Shown: positions 52,992 through 62,488 of the stretch, one piece after another
How the letters are laid out: each line of letters opens with the position of its first letter
Numbering within the stretch: the stretch's first letter is position 1
Origin: an uncultured Gammaproteobacteria bacterium
Lineage (GTDB): Bacteria > Patescibacteriota > Patescibacteriia > Patescibacteriales > GWC2-42-12
Direction: 5' to 3'
Assembly: GCA_964560005.1 (NCBI GenBank)
Contig: CAZLKB010000001.1
Coordinates: 77,079 to 141,078 of the forward strand
DNA: 64,000 nt
Notes under the pieces: model-generated
What the model was told of the DNA's origin: nothing
The model's input: only the letters and a program-made list of their open reading frames with translations
The model's database searches: none
Position numbers and translations under genes: made by a program

Positions 52992-53288
52992 CTAACAACA
53001 GCTCCCGCTTTTGCCGCCGCAACAGCCGCCGGCGCTTTCCTCGTCGTTAGAATCGCACTCCCCTCCGCCTGCCTGCGCAGGCAGGCCGCAGCCGCAGCCG
53101 CCGGCCTTATTATCGGTTTTAAAAACATTCTTCATAAAATTGACTGCGGAAAATTCTTGCTTGATATTCCTTGACTGGCATTTCGGGCAAGAAAATTTTT
53201 CACTCTTAGCCTCTTCTTTTTCCTTAATGGTCGCTTTGATGTCAAACGAATTGCCGCAAGCCGAACATTTGTAAGCGTAGGTCGCCAT
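52992..53288 (-). CDS. FmdB-type zinc-ribbon protein with Cys/Gly-rich tail
   Basis: MATYAYKCSACGNSF..CPKCQS. The tail is GGCGCG..GGCCGGKSGSCC. Confidence 0.6.
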   Translation of the reverse strand: MATYAYKCSACGNSFDIKATIKEKEEAKSEKFSCPKCQSRNIKQEFSAVNFMKNVFKTDNKAGGCGCGLPAQAGGGECDSNDEESAGGCCGGKSGSCC

Positions 53289-58488: not shown

Positions 58489-60156
58489 TTATAAACTAAC
58501 TCCACTATATGCAATAGCCCGAACAGTGTCCCAATCTAAAGCCGATTTCGGCAGATACTTATATACTTTTACGAACACACCAATACCTGCCTGCTCCAGA
58601 CTAAAATCGCGGCTGGCCGGCCGTAAGCCATAAGCCATTAGATCAATCGCTTCTTTATCATTAGTATTTTCCATATCCGCCTCTCGGCCATAGACTTTTT
58701 TAAACTCCGCTTTAGCTCTTGCTTCTGCCGCCGAATTGACCGTTGAAGGTAGCTGATTATTGCTGATTTTTATAATATTTTCCCAGTCAGTTTGAGTTTC
58801 CGGCGTATAACCAAAGGTTGACTTAAAAGAATTGAGCACACCGGCGCGCTCGCCCGCGCCTAACCTGGCGGTGCCAGGAGTTCCCTGCGCTATGAAATCA
58901 GGCGTCTGGCCGCTGATAATGCCGGCGGCTTCCGCGGCAGCACTGTCTAATAATTGCTCGGCCGAAGAGCTGGCGATTTTTACGCCCAATACTTCAGCCT
59001 CTAAATCAGCTTGATCGCCGACATCGGAAACCGGTTTAATACTTTCAACGGTTTCCGCCTCCGGCGCGACGCAAGCTCTCTTTCTCTCCGCATCTTGCTC
59101 GGCCGTTAAAGTGCAATTTACCGGAAAAATTGTTAGAACATTTCTATATTGCCAATTGTCAACGCAAGTATTTTGCCAAATGTCATATTCTACGCTCCGG
59201 CAGTCAACTGGAATAAAAATTCCGCCGCCGCCGGAAGACGGAGCCGGGTCCGGAGCGGGAATTTGATCCGGAATCGGCTGAGGAATATCATAATAGCCGA
59301 TGGGAAAACTCTTGCCGGCCAGAGCGATAACCGCGTATGGCGTCATAGCCTTATTATTAAACTCCGGATTGCCGCTAGGATCCATCCACCAAAAACCGCC
59401 GTCCGCGCCATCTTGCAATAATTGTAAATGAGTTAACGGACTATTGCCATTTTTTATCCAAGCGGCTGGCTGCTCGCCGATTCTATAAATAGCGGAGATT
59501 ACCCAGGCGTCAGAGCCGGAATCGCTGGCCGTGCCCCAGACCGGATCGTTCATAAACCCGCCATCGTCGTTTTGCCGAGTATGGAGAAAGGCAACGGCGT
59601 TAGTGATAACCGCGCTACCCGCATCCAGCCCCATTTCTAAAAGCGCCATTACAGCCGCGGCCGTGTCATTACTGCCGCTTGAGCCGCCGACCGCGTAGCC
59701 CCAGCCGCCATCGGCATTTTGATTGGCCAATAAAAAATCCTTGGCCGCGATCGCTTCAGCCGAGCCTGTCTTTTTGATTGAGGCCAAAGCTAAAATAGAC
59801 CAGATATCGTCGTTTAATAAAGTGGCGTCGCCCATTTGGGTGCCGTCATAGTAGGATTGTAATTTGGCGACATAATCAATACTGCCAAAAGTGGTTGGGT
59901 TTTCCCCGGCCGCGGCCAAAGCTAAAATAGTTTTGGCATAATCATTGGTCGGATTAAAGCCTCCTTCAGCTACGCTTTTCAGATGATCAATCGGCACGCC
60001 GGTTTCGCCGGCCGCGACTAGAGCCTGGGTAATCCAGGCGTCCGGAGTTTGGTTTTTTAAATAATCCACGGCTTCCGGTAGGCCCGCCGAGGCGGCGTTA
60101 GGCAGATAGATTGCTACAAGCGCAAAAAATAAAATTAAAAAAATTTTTGTTTTCAT
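58489..60156 (-). CDS. Secreted protein with prenyltransferase/terpene-cyclase-like alpha/alpha-toroid repeats
   Basis: Signal peptide MKTKIFLILFFALVAIYLPNAASA. Repeats QNADGGWGY, RQNDDGGF and QDGADGGFWW. The track ORF extends to 60195. Confidence 0.55.
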   Translation of the reverse strand: MKTKIFLILFFALVAIYLPNAASAGLPEAVDYLKNQTPDAWITQALVAAGETGVPIDHLKSVAEGGFNPTNDYAKTILALAAAGENPTTFGSIDYVAKLQSYYDGTQMGDATLLNDDIWSILALASIKKTGSAEAIAAKDFLLANQNADGGWGYAVGGSSGSNDTAAAVMALLEMGLDAGSAVITNAVAFLHTRQNDDGGFMNDPVWGTASDSGSDAWVISAIYRIGEQPAAWIKNGNSPLTHLQLLQDGADGGFWWMDPSGNPEFNNKAMTPYAVIALAGKSFPIGYYDIPQPIPDQIPAPDPAPSSGGGGIFIPVDCRSVEYDIWQNTCVDNWQYRNVLTIFPVNCTLTAEQDAERKRACVAPEAETVESIKPVSDVGDQADLEAEVLGVKIASSSAEQLLDSAAAEAAGIISGQTPDFIAQGTPGTARLGAGERAGVLNSFKSTFGYTPETQTDWENIIKISNNQLPSTVNSAAEARAKAEFKKVYGREADMENTNDKEAIDLMAYGLRPASRDFSLEQAGIGVFVKVYKYLPKSALDWDTVRAIAYSGVSL

Positions 60157-60202
60157 AAAATTAATTATTTTATTATTAAAATTATTTATTTTCATATTTT
60201 AT

Positions 60203-60244
60203 TGTTGTCATTGCGAGGAGCCCGTACTCGGGCGACGCGGCAAT
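60203..60244 (-). repeat. GC-rich hairpin repeat variant (..CTCGCAATGACAACAA)
   Basis: The rc reads ATTGCCGCGTCGCCCGAGTACGGGCTCCTCGCAATGACAACAA. Confidence 0.5.
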
Positions 60245-60266
60245 TTCATTAACGGGGTAGAATAAA

Positions 60267-60818
60267 TTAAAAACTTTTTTTCTCATACTTCCATTCTATA
60301 ACATCATTATTTTTTAATTTATAATATGACACGCCGACTTGAGCCGGTTGGCCGTTAACATAATATAGCCAATTTTTACCGGCCGGGTCATTCTTAACGC
60401 CATTAATTTCTTCAATGAAAAACCCCAGTCTGGAATAATCACGACTCTTAAAATCAATTTTATTCTGCTCTTTTAACAACCGCATTAAATCATAGACCGT
60501 GCTATCCGGGGAAACTTGCGCTTCATATTTAACTCCGCTGATTGCTAGATTGGCTAAAATTTTCTTGTTCGGCTCGGACGCCGGAGCTTTGGCTTGGTCC
60601 TGATTTAGCGCTCGTTCATTTTCTTGAGCCGCCTGCTCAGCCGATTTAGTAATGATTTTAGCCTGATTAAGCGCATTTGCTAAACCGCCGGGCGCGTCAT
60701 TACCGGCCAAGGACATTAAACCTACTTCACTGTTTGTCAAATGCTTCACGGTTGAAACGCCAACCCAGGCTAATAGCAGAAAAACTAAAAAAAATATGGC
60801 TAAATTTTTTACTTTCAT
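60267..60818 (-). CDS. Membrane-anchored DUF4430-domain protein (transcobalamin beta-domain-like)
   Basis: C-terminal TVYDLMRLL..GFFIEEINGVKNDPAGKNWLYYVNGQPAQVGVSYYKLKNNDVIEWKY. Start taken at the ATG at 60818. The upstream ATG at 60836 lies inside a repeat. Confidence 0.7.
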   Translation of the reverse strand: MKVKNLAIFFLVFLLLAWVGVSTVKHLTNSEVGLMSLAGNDAPGGLANALNQAKIITKSAEQAAQENERALNQDQAKAPASEPNKKILANLAISGVKYEAQVSPDSTVYDLMRLLKEQNKIDFKSRDYSRLGFFIEEINGVKNDPAGKNWLYYVNGQPAQVGVSYYKLKNNDVIEWKYEKKSF

Positions 60819-60831
60819 ATAATCTATCGCC

Positions 60832-60856
60832 GTCATCCCCGCGAAAGCGGGGATCC
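60832..60856 (-). repeat. GC-rich hairpin repeat, short form (GGATCCCCGCTTTCGCGGGGATGAC)
   Basis: 7-bp stem TCCCCGC/GCGGGGA. Overlaps the longer track ORF start. Confidence 0.55.
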
Positions 60857-60960
60857 AGAAATGCTTAATTACGAAAAACCCGCCCTGCTTCGAGCGGATC
60901 CGATAAATTTAACATTATTAAATTTATTTTCTTTGCTCGAAGAATAACTATATAAGTTAG

Positions 60961-61052
60961 TTATCAGCGTTCTGGCTTGTTCCCCCACCATCTTGGTGAA
61001 GGACATTACAGTTGCGGCACAGCGCCGGGTTTACACCGGACTTTCCTGATAA
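60961..61052 (-). promoter_or_regulatory. Cobalamin riboswitch-like aptamer (compact form)
   Basis: Minus strand: P1 TTATCAG/CTGATAA. Core GGAAAGTCCGGTGTAAACCCGGCGCTGTGCCGCAACTGTAA and B12-box-like AAGCCAGAACGCTG. Confidence 0.7.
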
Positions 61053-61068
61053 CTATTGTTGTTTCTAT

Positions 61069-61096
61069 ATTATATAACTTTTGTAGAAAGAGTCAA
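61069..61096 (-). promoter_or_regulatory. Canonical sigma70-type promoter for the riboswitch operon
   Basis: On the minus strand: TTGACT (rc 61091-61096), 16 nt, TATAAT (rc 61069-61074). The predicted start is about 10 nt before P1. Confidence 0.5.
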
Positions 61097-61100
61097 TCAG

Positions 61101-61172
61101 TACGCCCAGGGGGAATCGAACCCTCATATCCAGCTTAGAAGGCTGGTGTTCTATCCATTGAACTATGGGCGC
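61101..61172 (-). tRNA. tRNA-Arg(TCT)
   Basis: Acceptor GCGCCCA/TGGGCGT (G1.U72), loop CTTCTAA, T-arm GAGGG-TTCGATT-CCCCC with one mismatch. Confidence 0.8.
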
Positions 61173-61211
61173 AAATTTAAATATGGTTTTAGATTCACTT
61201 CACTTTAGAAA

Positions 61212-61276
61212 GAGCTGGTGTTCCCCGCCCGAACGTACCGTTCGGTACGGGCGGGTATCCATTGAACTATGGGCGC
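61212..61276 (-). pseudogene. tRNA-Arg 5'-half copy interrupted by a 32-nt GC palindrome
   Basis: GCGCCCATAGTTCAATGGATA, then the insert at 61224-61255, then GAACACCAGC. Identity to the intact gene ends in the anticodon loop and there is no T-arm. Confidence 0.5.
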
Positions 61277-61412
61277 AAATAAAATAAAATTGCCTAAGAT
61301 AGGCAATAACCCAATCTTAACGGCTAAAACTTAATTTGTCAAAAGAAAATGAAATGAATTGAAAATTAAAACACTGAAAATTCATTGAAAATTGATACTT
61401 GAAAATTAAAAA

Positions 61413-62336
61413 TTATTTCTTCCTCCTCCCATGAAACGCCTTATGCACGTCCCTTAGTTGCTGATCGGTGATATGAGTATAAACTTGGGTGGTAGTGATG
61501 GAGGAGTGCCCGAGCATGGCCTGCACGCTCCTTATGTCCGCGCCGTTCATCAGTAAATCGGTGGCATAGCTATGGCGCATGGTGTGAGGGGTAACCTGCT
61601 TGGTGATGCCGGCTACCTTGGCATATTTTTGCACTAACCGTTGCACGCTTCTCGGTGTAAGCCCCTCTTCTTTTTCGCGTCCGCCTGAAGCTTTGTCATG
61701 GCTGATAAATAAATAGGGATTAATATCATGCCTGACTTTTAAATAATCTTCAATTGAATGCCTGGCCTCGTCGGATAAAAACACTACGCGCAGTTTAGAA
61801 CCTTTTCCTCGCACCGTGAATTCATCTTTTTTTAAATTAATGTTTTCAATTTTTAATTTACATAATTCGGAAACGCGAAGCCCGGTGGAAAAAAACAATT
61901 CTAAAATCGCTTTATCTCGTTTTCTGATAATTTCCGGCAGTTCAATCTTAAACGGCGCCTCCAATATCCGCTCCAAGTCAGAGCCTTCTAAAAAATCTAC
62001 CTGCCTTTGCTGCTGCTTAGCCAATTCCACTTTTTCCGGCTCTAAAGATTTTATGTCGGTCTTCACCAGATATTTTAAAAACCCGCGCAGAGCGATTAAA
62101 TGATAATTTTGCGTATTTTTTTTCAAACCCTTATTTTCATCGCTTCCCAGTCTATTTAAAAATAAGCGGTATTTATGCACTAATTCTTTGCTAATTTTAG
62201 CCGGTGTGCTTACCCCCGCCTCTTTGGCGAAGGCGGCAAATCTATTTAAATAAAAATCATAATTATCAGTAGTATTGCGCGACAAACCCTTTTCCACCTC
62301 CATATATTCAATAAATTGTTTTATATATTTTTCCAT
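61413..62336 (-). CDS. Tyrosine recombinase, XerC/XerD family
   Basis: RHSYATDLL..LGHSSITTTQVYTH catalytic region. Start moved from TTG (62357) to the ATG at 62336. Confidence 0.85.
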   Translation of the reverse strand: MEKYIKQFIEYMEVEKGLSRNTTDNYDFYLNRFAAFAKEAGVSTPAKISKELVHKYRLFLNRLGSDENKGLKKNTQNYHLIALRGFLKYLVKTDIKSLEPEKVELAKQQQRQVDFLEGSDLERILEAPFKIELPEIIRKRDKAILELFFSTGLRVSELCKLKIENINLKKDEFTVRGKGSKLRVVFLSDEARHSIEDYLKVRHDINPYLFISHDKASGGREKEEGLTPRSVQRLVQKYAKVAGITKQVTPHTMRHSYATDLLMNGADIRSVQAMLGHSSITTTQVYTHITDQQLRDVHKAFHGRRKK

Positions 62337-62348
62337 AGGATCTATATG

Positions 62349-62488
62349 GCCGGACAAAGGTTTTAGTTTTGAGCGGCTCCTCTGTGCTTTCCTCGGAGCT
62401 AAAAAGGGGACGAGGGAGAAATTGTTGCATTTTTTAATTAAAAATGCCCAAATTTCGTCTAAGCGAAAAACTAAAACCTTTGTCCGGC
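62349..62488 (+). repeat. Structured element, type B, copy B5
   Basis: Arms GCCGGACAAAGGTTTTAG / CTAAAACCTTTGTCCGGC. Core TTTTGAGCGGCTCC..AAATTTCGTCTAAGCGAAAAA. Confidence 0.7.

Follow-up and report, generated by a model that had tools for sequence, protein, structure and literature searches.

The stretch of DNA analysed here, referred to below as the window, comprises 64,000 nt of an uncultured bacterium assigned by GTDB to the Patescibacteriota (assembly GCA_964560005.1, contig CAZLKB010000001.1, positions 77,079 to 141,078). It contains a half copy of a tRNA gene that is interrupted by a 32-nt imperfect palindrome, hereafter PAL, and that lies just upstream of the intact gene for tRNA-Arg(TCT) on the same strand. 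The explanation to which we give slightly better than even odds (a probability of roughly 0.55) is that the half tRNA once formed the 5′ part of the tRNA-Arg(TCT) gene and was displaced from it, and that the unit in the window is a form, devoid of an open reading frame (ORF), of a family of nuclease cassettes. According to this best reading, the unit would be a relic, or else a non-autonomous member, of a cassette that seems not to have been described before and that restores the tRNA genes it invades; the connection with a nuclease is, at this locus, something we infer.

The half tRNA gene and nuclease cassettes of the same layout

The unit and the gene that follows it are arranged as follows, in the direction of the minus strand:

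61256..61280, minus strand: first part of the fragment, an exact copy of tRNA nt 1–21 (61276..61256) with the upstream ATTT (61280..61277), together a 25-nt exact repeat (direct-repeat analysis)
61224–61255, minus orientation relative to the tRNA: PAL, the 32-nt imperfect palindrome CCCGCCCGAACGTACCGTTCGGTACGGGCGGG (sequence, repeats, fold and copies in other genomes)
61214..61223, minus strand: second part of the fragment, an exact 10-nt copy of tRNA nt 22–31 (direct-repeat analysis)
61173..61213, minus strand: AT-rich spacer of 41 nt between fragment and intact tRNA, without an ORF (sequence and homologous spacers in the related loci L125 and L131)
61100..61172, minus strand: intact tRNA-Arg(TCT) (ARAGORN and Rfam RF00005, 69 bits; gene in a matching position in relatives)

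The gene at 61100..61172 is functional, and under the cassette model its nt 1–21 (or 1–31) are the 'new' copy. The fragment begins where the tRNA begins in relatives without a unit (L139, L128, L130 and L223), and the ATTT that precedes it also forms the last 4 nt of the spacer. Its second part covers the 3′ strand of the D-stem, nt 26 and the 5′ strand of the anticodon stem; beyond nt 31, local alignment reveals weak, decayed similarity to the tRNA until about nt 38. PAL sits bluntly between A21 and G22 (GGATA|GAAC, a TA|GA site), in an unambiguous position and with zero target duplication. The first-pass annotation of this stretch had described the half copy, its splitting by a nested hairpin and the distances of 39 nt to the tRNA and about 137 nt to the stop codon of an Xer recombinase gene, all of which our analysis bears out. 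The unit is not an assembly artefact, because the independent Logan assembly L221 repeats the identical sequence until its contig breaks inside the palindrome and L131 carries an orthologous copy.

A matching 3′ half of the tRNA, which the same annotation had proposed to look for, is not detectable after the fragment, and the spacer has no significant similarity to the 3′ half. The 72-nt period that appears once PAL is removed raised the idea of a complete tandem copy of the tRNA whose 3′ half has decayed into the spacer; this was rejected, as no similarity extends beyond the anticodon loop. The periods of other ORF-less units range from 31 to 114 nt. The distance from hairpin to tRNA is 51 nt in the window and 24–93 nt in seven other ORF-less units.

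At many PAL loci the 245–313 nt between hairpin and tRNA accommodate a small ORF, which encodes a GIY-YIG catalytic domain and little else (the ORF of L040 matches PF01541 with E = 1.5e-12). With one such protein as query, a search made independently of PAL retrieved 170 homologues of ~80 aa, mostly from Patescibacteria, and the genomic context was taken for eight of them, chosen for long contigs alone and without reference to PAL. All eight contexts, which correspond to at least six independent loci and involve tRNA-Ala, Asp, Ile, Val and Lys, have the same layout: tRNA nt 1–21, a PAL-family hairpin, nt 22 to ~36, the ORF and the intact cognate tRNA. Three of the contexts (L201, L219 and L220) have the exact PAL as hairpin, the five others (L206, L209, L213, L217 and L218) a variant. 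A hairpin at 21|22 is thus the constant companion of the small GIY-YIG gene. The ORF is present in the architecturally identical loci L040, L053, L058, L063, L066, L075, L079 and L201–L220.

In the GIY-YIG cassettes the stop codon of the ORF falls within the first 15 nt of the intact tRNA. In L201, L209 and L217–L220 this stop is a TAG supplied by the tRNA itself (the conserved T8-A9-G10, or T13-A14-G15). When RNase P matures the tRNA, the nuclease mRNA would thus lose its stop codon, and expression of the nuclease may in this way be coupled to tRNA maturation. Units can also follow one another: L099 (1180–2375) has several GIY-YIG ORFs with PAL-bearing fragments in a row, and L024 and L071 hold two units each. 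Such tandem arrays, of which L131 provides another, suggest repeated invasion or unequal crossing-over.

On its plus strand PAL consists of an outer stem (CCCGCCCG/CGGGCGGG), a conserved AACG bulge and an inner stem (TACCG/CGGTA); the fold has an 8-bp outer stem, a 4–5-bp inner stem and a 4–5-nt asymmetric bulge, with a minimum free energy as DNA of −12 kcal/mol (z ~ −2.8). A search for further copies, again suggested by the first-pass annotation, yielded none in the 64-kb window at up to three mismatches; it succeeded in other genomes, as a scan of a species-representative genome collection found the exact 32-mer in >120 stretches from at least five phyla, a lower bound that refers to the matches listed. 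The hosts include many Patescibacteria lineages, Bacteroidota (among them the isolate Cecembia lonarensis LW9 and a 5.3-Mb Ekhidna chromosome), Bdellovibrionales, Ca. Scalindua and one gammaproteobacterial metagenome-assembled genome (MAG). A phage or plasmid vector was considered and discarded, PAL having no match in IMG/VR (2.9 million viral contigs), among the INPHARED phages or among the PLSDB plasmids.

The flanks of PAL sites are unrelated to one another, and the mobile unit is therefore the 32-mer itself. In the collected loci the family amounts to 22 variants and 167 members, the window variant being the commonest (136/167). Its general form is CCCGCCCG-AACG-[inner stem-loop]-CGGGCGGG, to which the window copy conforms; the inner stems vary yet stay complementary (TACCG/CGGTA, ACCGAA/TTCGGT, ACTGA/TCAGT, ACTGG/CCAGT). 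Either orientation can occur at the same site, as in L040 versus L066. Target duplication is absent at those tRNA sites whose uninterrupted sequence is known. A weak, symmetric TN|NA pattern (T at −2, A at +2) is found at 28 of 69 non-redundant junctions against 7.7% expected (p = 4e-14), and outside tRNA contexts at 17 of 54 (p = 3e-7). The window copy agrees with these preferences, being blunt, at a TN|NA site and at position 21|22 of a non-functional tRNA copy. A general targeting of hairpin loops was also considered and rejected, since PAL-deleted junctions show no enrichment in predicted loops (25/96 versus 202/598 controls). In some Bacteroidota MAGs (L012, L015, L022, L025, L065, L087, L114 and others) PAL is multi-copy and lies within a larger repeat ('..gtggactg|PAL|ccgactattaactaattatttatgaaacctgaaaattaagg') as well as within heptamer tracts that resemble microsatellites (gactgcc / attccat). 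Many Bacteroidota copies lie close to contig ends, and the hairpin therefore probably breaks short-read assemblies.

The bias of PAL towards tRNA fragments is strong: once PAL is deleted, 27 of 123 distinct junctions (22%) are tRNA-like, as compared with 1 of 595 controls (0.2%; odds ratio 167, p = 4e-21). ARAGORN found no site, among 129, at which removal of PAL leaves an intact tRNA. Where a cognate tRNA lies within 600 nt, 5′ fragments are found upstream of it, mostly in Patescibacteria and Bdellovibrionales, and 3′ fragments downstream of it, in the case of Bacteroidota tRNA-Arg genes with PAL in the T-loop. The hairpin follows nt 20–22 in 19 of 24 non-redundant upstream units. PAL can also arrive later, in fragments already present, because L024 and L071 hold PAL-free fragments beside identical PAL-bearing ones.

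Similar arrangements extend beyond tRNA. At the end of an rRNA operon in L062, an intact 5S rRNA (417–523, 77 bits) is followed by a 5S-like copy (~590–710) in which PAL sits between GCGCCGA and TGGTAG, as at tRNAs, and in L047 PAL interrupts another 5S-like fragment. Single pseudo-tRNA fragments with two or three different GC-rich hairpins occur in L004, L007, L010, L079, L100, L107 and L120, at about nt 10–12, 17, 21|22, 44–45 and 55|56. Because one fragment can carry different hairpins, several hairpin families seem to share a preference for tRNA-like DNA.

The tRNA-Arg leader in related genomes

The same chromosomal position was compared in 80 metagenomic loci (L121–L200) with recombinase orthologues at 59–85% identity, to which L221–L224 were added to give 84 Xer loci. 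Comparison in relatives, another proposal of the first-pass annotation, proved fruitful: orthologous units exist in L131 and L125, and the half copy is accordingly not limited to the window. The site is filled in the window, L221, L131 and L125 and empty in L139, L128, L130 and L223/L224 (80–85% Xer identity), in which the tRNA begins right after a conserved leader hairpin; related genomes thus display a presence/absence polymorphism at a conserved target. In L131, PAL has the same orientation and site as in the window, with a 27-nt hairpin nested in its loop, and two more units of another type stand ahead of it, giving three units before the tRNA-Arg gene. In the unit of L125 the 21|22 site is occupied by another hairpin, of 20 nt (cctgcttgtcggcaggcagg), and nt 22–31 of its fragment (GAACACCAGC) are unlike those of its own tRNA (GAACAAGGCC). 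In L121–123, L129, L136, L222, L153, L154, L197 and L140, the fragments measure 12 or 21 nt and other GC-rich hairpins come after them. Because units of several types occur there across relatives, the tRNA-Arg leader is a hot spot at which hairpin-marked 5′ tRNA fragments accumulate.

Upstream of the unit, the window contains the following features:

61289..61307, minus strand: terminator-like hairpin with a T-run behind it, located downstream of the promoter and ahead of the tRNA or fragment (sequence 'attgcc..ggcaattttatttt' conserved among relatives)
61314..61342, minus strand: sigma-70-like promoter, TTGACA, 17 nt, TAAGAT (TTGACA box kept in relatives)
61413..62357, minus strand: gene for an XerC/D-type tyrosine recombinase (Pfam PF00589 and PF02899; synteny in 80 relatives)

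The order on the minus strand is thus Xer gene, promoter, leader hairpin, tRNA nt 1–21, PAL, nt 22–31, spacer and intact tRNA. To judge from the promoter, a transcript of pre-tRNA-Arg would have the fragment and PAL in its 5′ leader. The leader hairpin at 61289–61307 could serve as an attenuator, as the terminator of Xer or as a stabiliser of the leader.

In most of the 80 relatives, the Xer gene is followed by tRNA-Arg(TCT) on the same strand and often by tRNA-His(GTG) next; in compact relatives the Xer stop codon is separated from the tRNA by only 43–70 nt, essentially the promoter. Homologues of the recombinase are annotated as XerD or as tyrosine recombinases of Patescibacteria, Falkowbacteria and Kuenenbacteria. 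Given this synteny, the annotation of the homologues and the XerC/D pair of domains (PF00589 and PF02899) in the window protein, the recombinase is a resident chromosomal gene of a Patescibacteria lineage and not the integrase of an island; it is a bystander to the tRNA unit. Nor does the gene lie inside an element bounded by the tRNA repeat, since the synteny holds with or without the fragment and only 39–41 nt separate the repeats.

A long-hairpin element, 'gtcattgcgag...ctcgcaatgac', is located between Xer and the tRNA promoter in L126, L128, L130, L134, L138, L222 and L125, and a short related piece (gtcattgcgaggagcccgtactcgggcgacgcggcaat) occupies 60209–60245 of the window, upstream of the ORF 58489–60195. 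It represents another dispersed family of GC-rich repeats, and PAL is inserted inside its relatives in Lentimicrobiaceae MAGs (L019, L021, L049, L116).

Origin of the unit

In the cassette explanation, the 5′ region of the tRNA-Arg gene would have acquired ~104 bp of extra DNA, made up of PAL at 21|22, a short tRNA tail, the AT-rich spacer and a replacement 5′ part. A cassette of the PAL/GIY-YIG family would have entered the gene, the original 5′ part would have been displaced upstream with the hairpin in it, and the replacement 5′ part would have joined the resident 3′ part, so that the gene stayed intact. The window unit would descend from a nuclease cassette whose ORF was lost, or it would be non-autonomous and have been mobilised in trans. 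As for the enzyme, it may break tRNA genes near 21|22 of the D-loop (in the T-loop for the Bacteroidota form), the cassette then being copied in by repair of the break. The hairpin could act as a cis element of the cassette, namely as its end, as the substrate of the nuclease or as a disruption of the old target that confers immunity, and solitary hairpins may be moved alone by the same enzyme. In the cell, fragment and hairpin are probably just part of the pre-tRNA leader and removed by RNase P.

It is tempting to go further, although we would put this proposal at somewhat below even odds: PAL-family hairpins and ~80-aa GIY-YIG genes may constitute a previously undescribed class of bacterial mobile elements, which would invade loop positions of tRNA genes and of a 5S rRNA gene, regenerate the gene by supplying a segment anew (its 5′ part in Patescibacteria and its 3′ part in Bacteroidota), leave a hairpin-marked pseudo-fragment and spread between phyla. 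The hairpin would be the cis-acting substrate of the nuclease, able to transpose alone to TN|NA sites, and the window would hold a non-autonomous member. Export of GIY-YIG genes from Patescibacteria by horizontal transfer has been predicted (PMC12455944), and the studies consulted on GIY-YIG in the candidate phyla radiation, this report among them, concern horizontal transfer and rRNA insertions only. Neither PAL nor mini GIY-YIG cassettes associated with tRNA genes came up as described in the literature, in a search whose coverage excluded most subscription journals, so that a prior description is possible.

Several observations weigh against a cassette origin. Neither the window nor the 84 related Xer loci contain a GIY-YIG gene (profile hidden Markov model for the window and L121–L200, inspection for L221–L224). 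The tail of the spacer, CTAAAACCATATT, resembles the end of the ORF in L201/L220 and runs in frame into the TAG at tRNA nt 8–10, but the resemblance is not significant, and the spacer as a whole does not significantly match the ends of GIY-YIG ORFs either, as 51 of 500 shuffles reach the observed score. The 41-nt spacer is too short and too AT-rich to keep significant similarity to them. The proposal that it is a remnant of such an ORF is accordingly unsupported, no ORF-less spacer except that of L011 beating its shuffles. Mismatch densities on the two sides of the hairpin (3.8% versus 3.4%) do not discriminate between an insertion at 21|22 and one further downstream. The proteins that adjoin the identical 32-mer are only 34–65% identical to one another, and PAL is therefore not simply co-inherited with the ORF; it is either very strongly constrained or re-seeded from a common, currently spreading pool. 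The presence of PAL in pre-existing fragments (L024, L071) and of another hairpin in L125 implies that hairpin and duplication may be separate events at this locus. How the regenerated tRNA escapes re-cutting lacks an explanation in the cassette model, which also leaves unaccounted for the far better conservation of the 32-mer than of the protein and a spread across phyla that has no phage or plasmid signal.

The main rival, which we hold to be unlikely while granting it substantial weight, assumes two independent neutral events: without involvement of a nuclease cassette, the 5′ region of the tRNA was locally duplicated in part, through an error of replication or recombination, and the copy was later hit by a freely moving PAL, which landed there because the TA|GA of the D-loop fits its target and a pseudo-copy tolerates insertions. 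This would account for PAL-free fragments next to identical PAL-bearing ones, for the different hairpin at the same site in L125, for the many PAL insertions outside tRNA that obey the TN|NA rule, and for the lack of both a GIY-YIG gene in the window and related loci and of similarity between the spacer and GIY-YIG ORFs. Against it, the spacer does not repeat the upstream leader, which excludes a simple tandem duplication; the same polarity, with a 5′ fragment ahead of its cognate tRNA, and the same site are met again at unrelated tRNAs and in different phyla; all eight GIY-YIG cassettes have the same hairpin at the same site; and several types of unit, some in tandem, pile up in this leader among relatives. 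Of the options of the first-pass annotation, a decayed duplicate colonised by a GC palindrome comes closest. That option holds in so far as the palindrome is a mobile hairpin that can land in fragments already present; it missed the identity of PAL across phyla, the recurrent succession of half tRNA, hairpin and intact tRNA, and the full form with a GIY-YIG gene.

Much less probable is a selected role of fragment and hairpin in the leader, as a decoy or competitor for the 3′ strand of the tRNA, as a processing signal or as a stabilising 5′ hairpin. The unit does lie inside the predicted transcript, the fragments of relatives match their own tRNA with few or no mismatches, and in the predicted fold the acceptor strand of the fragment pairs with the 3′ end of the tRNA (z = −3.1), but such pairing is a trivial result of the duplication. 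The fragment (12, 21 or 31 nt), the type of hairpin and the copy number differ between relatives, compact relatives do without the unit, and it is this polymorphism in presence and length among close relatives that makes a selected role unlikely. The two other options of the first-pass annotation did not survive and are effectively excluded. One, an attachment-like scar of the adjacent Xer-family recombinase or of another integrase, with crossover in the anticodon loop and an unusual 5′ polarity, draws on a recombinase gene 136 nt away and on the end of identity near the anticodon loop; yet Xer and tRNA-Arg are neighbours in most relatives whether or not a fragment is present, close relatives lack the fragment, the ~40 nt between the repeats leave no room for an integrated element, the duplicated segment is the 5′ part of the tRNA (nt 1–31) and not the 3′ part, and the same architecture exists elsewhere with a GIY-YIG gene and no integrase. 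The other, which we find the least credible of all, supposes that the tRNA gene is split or permuted, or that the tRNA has a D-loop intron. The 5′ half is indeed perfectly conserved and excision of the hairpin is conceivable in principle, but an intact tRNA-Arg is encoded 39 nt further downstream, the fragment is not followed by a 3′ half, removal of PAL in silico restores a tRNA at 0 of 129 sites, Rfam has no match for the fragment or the hairpin at E up to 1, and we know of no bacterial splicing endonuclease of the kind that such tRNAs require.

For this locus alone, the outcome is that the half tRNA is a relic in a tRNA leader, neither a second gene nor an integrase scar; ordinary as it looks, the window copy is the thread that leads to the PAL/GIY-YIG family. 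Should the cassette explanation be true, the tRNA genes of ultra-small Patescibacteria genomes and of Bacteroidota would be targets of a minimal selfish cassette, consisting of a nuclease reduced to its catalytic domain and one hairpin, which spares its host by rebuilding the tRNA. A 32-nt DNA identical across at least five phyla would then be a rare marker of recent horizontal traffic among uncultivated bacteria. The same explanation would account for pseudo-tRNA fragments, for contig breaks at palindromes and for many unannotated 'GIY-YIG nuclease family protein' genes beside tRNAs, and it would provide a very small pair of site-specific nuclease and hairpin for study.

Known systems and neighbouring features

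The locus departs in defining features from each of the closest known systems. Free-standing GIY-YIG homing endonucleases are exemplified by the Seg family of phage T4, such as SegB in a tRNA gene cluster, and in Allomyces atp6 a mobile endonuclease ORF has made a hybrid gene and displaced the old gene end. Reported analogues are free-standing GIY-YIG homing genes and the mobile endonuclease ORFs of fungal mitochondria, with their hybrid genes and displaced gene ends (PMC3630166, PMC13096335). Like these systems, PAL cassettes place a small nuclease ORF in or next to a conserved gene, with a presence that varies among relatives; they also keep the invaded gene functional by a replacement segment and leave the old segment as a pseudo-fragment. 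Unlike homing endonucleases, the cassette protein is only a catalytic domain of ~80 aa, without a DNA-binding domain. The targets also differ, being bacterial tRNA genes and a 5S rRNA gene, as does the conserved hairpin that marks the old junction, and what is replaced in Patescibacteria is the 5′ end. Nuclease activity and homing of the cassettes are putative. The window copy differs further in that its inserted DNA, with the 41-nt spacer, has no ORF.

Repetitive extragenic palindromes (REPs) and REPINs are described as short GC-rich imperfect palindromes dispersed in bacterial chromosomes, presumably moved in trans by a nuclease gene, RAYT, that is itself flanked by hairpins (PMC2817692, PMC3733652). 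REPs are lineage-specific, reach high copy number, have a GTAG or CGTC head and are paired with a Y1 HUH transposase, whereas PAL is identical across phyla, is single-copy in the 64-kb window, favours tRNA-like DNA and accompanies a GIY-YIG gene; it starts with CCCG and ends with CGGG, without GTAG or CGTC. The 64 kb of the window contain one copy of PAL, and some Bacteroidota MAGs contain many.

Other reported GC-rich hairpins that invade AT-rich genomes are the mitochondrial GC clusters of yeasts, the double-hairpin elements of Allomyces and the repetitive hairpin-forming elements of sponges (PMC4478555, PMC2800124). PAL shares with them nested insertions, a location in tRNA genes or close to them, and the company of mobile endonuclease ORFs. 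Unlike PAL, they are organellar and family-specific in sequence, and some produce target duplications. To our knowledge, none of them is common to bacterial phyla or tied to position 21|22 of a tRNA.

Integrative elements that target tRNA genes likewise leave a partial tRNA copy beside an intact tRNA regenerated by the incoming DNA. However, those that rely on tyrosine integrases are kilobases long, bring their own integrase and regenerate the 3′ part, whereas PAL units measure ~100–350 bp, regenerate the 5′ part and have a resident Xer as the nearby recombinase. The palindromic elements of Rickettsia insert into genes, including those for RNA. They differ from PAL in that they measure 100–150 bp, are confined to one genus and are tolerated inside functional genes, PAL being found in an otherwise intact tRNA at 0 of 129 sites. 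The arms of PAL are inverted repeats, as in a miniature inverted-repeat transposable element, but no target-site duplication is present at tRNA sites with a known uninterrupted sequence.

Other features of the neighbourhood may be mentioned. Directly after tRNA-Arg, and behind a strong promoter-like site (61096..61069), the window has an adenosylcobalamin riboswitch on the minus strand (60919–61072, 52.4 bits), followed by two ORFs of the same strand, 60267–60836, which encodes a DUF4430 protein, and 58489–60195, which encodes a 568-aa protein with repeats like those of prenyltransferases and squalene-hopene cyclases. Riboswitch and ORFs together look like an operon for surface or binding proteins under B12 control, inserted between the tRNA-Arg and tRNA-His genes. 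The relative L223 has both the riboswitch and the DUF4430 gene, L222 the DUF4430 gene alone.

From 61352 to 61411, in the interval between the Xer stop codon and the tRNA promoter, the window has four to five short direct repeats (ttgaaaattaaaa / cattgaaaatt), and strings resembling 'aaaattgaaaattg' occur in the distant relatives L159, L160 and L173. Small GC-rich palindromes are found at the start of the ORF 60267–60836 (atccccgcgaaagcggggat, 60835–60854) and inside a small GC-rich ORF, 52992–53288 (gcctgcctgcgcaggcaggc, 53067–53086). The latter palindrome is a member of the CCTGCCTGC..GCAGGCAGG family, and tRNA fragments of L010, L100 and L125 are likewise interrupted by this family.

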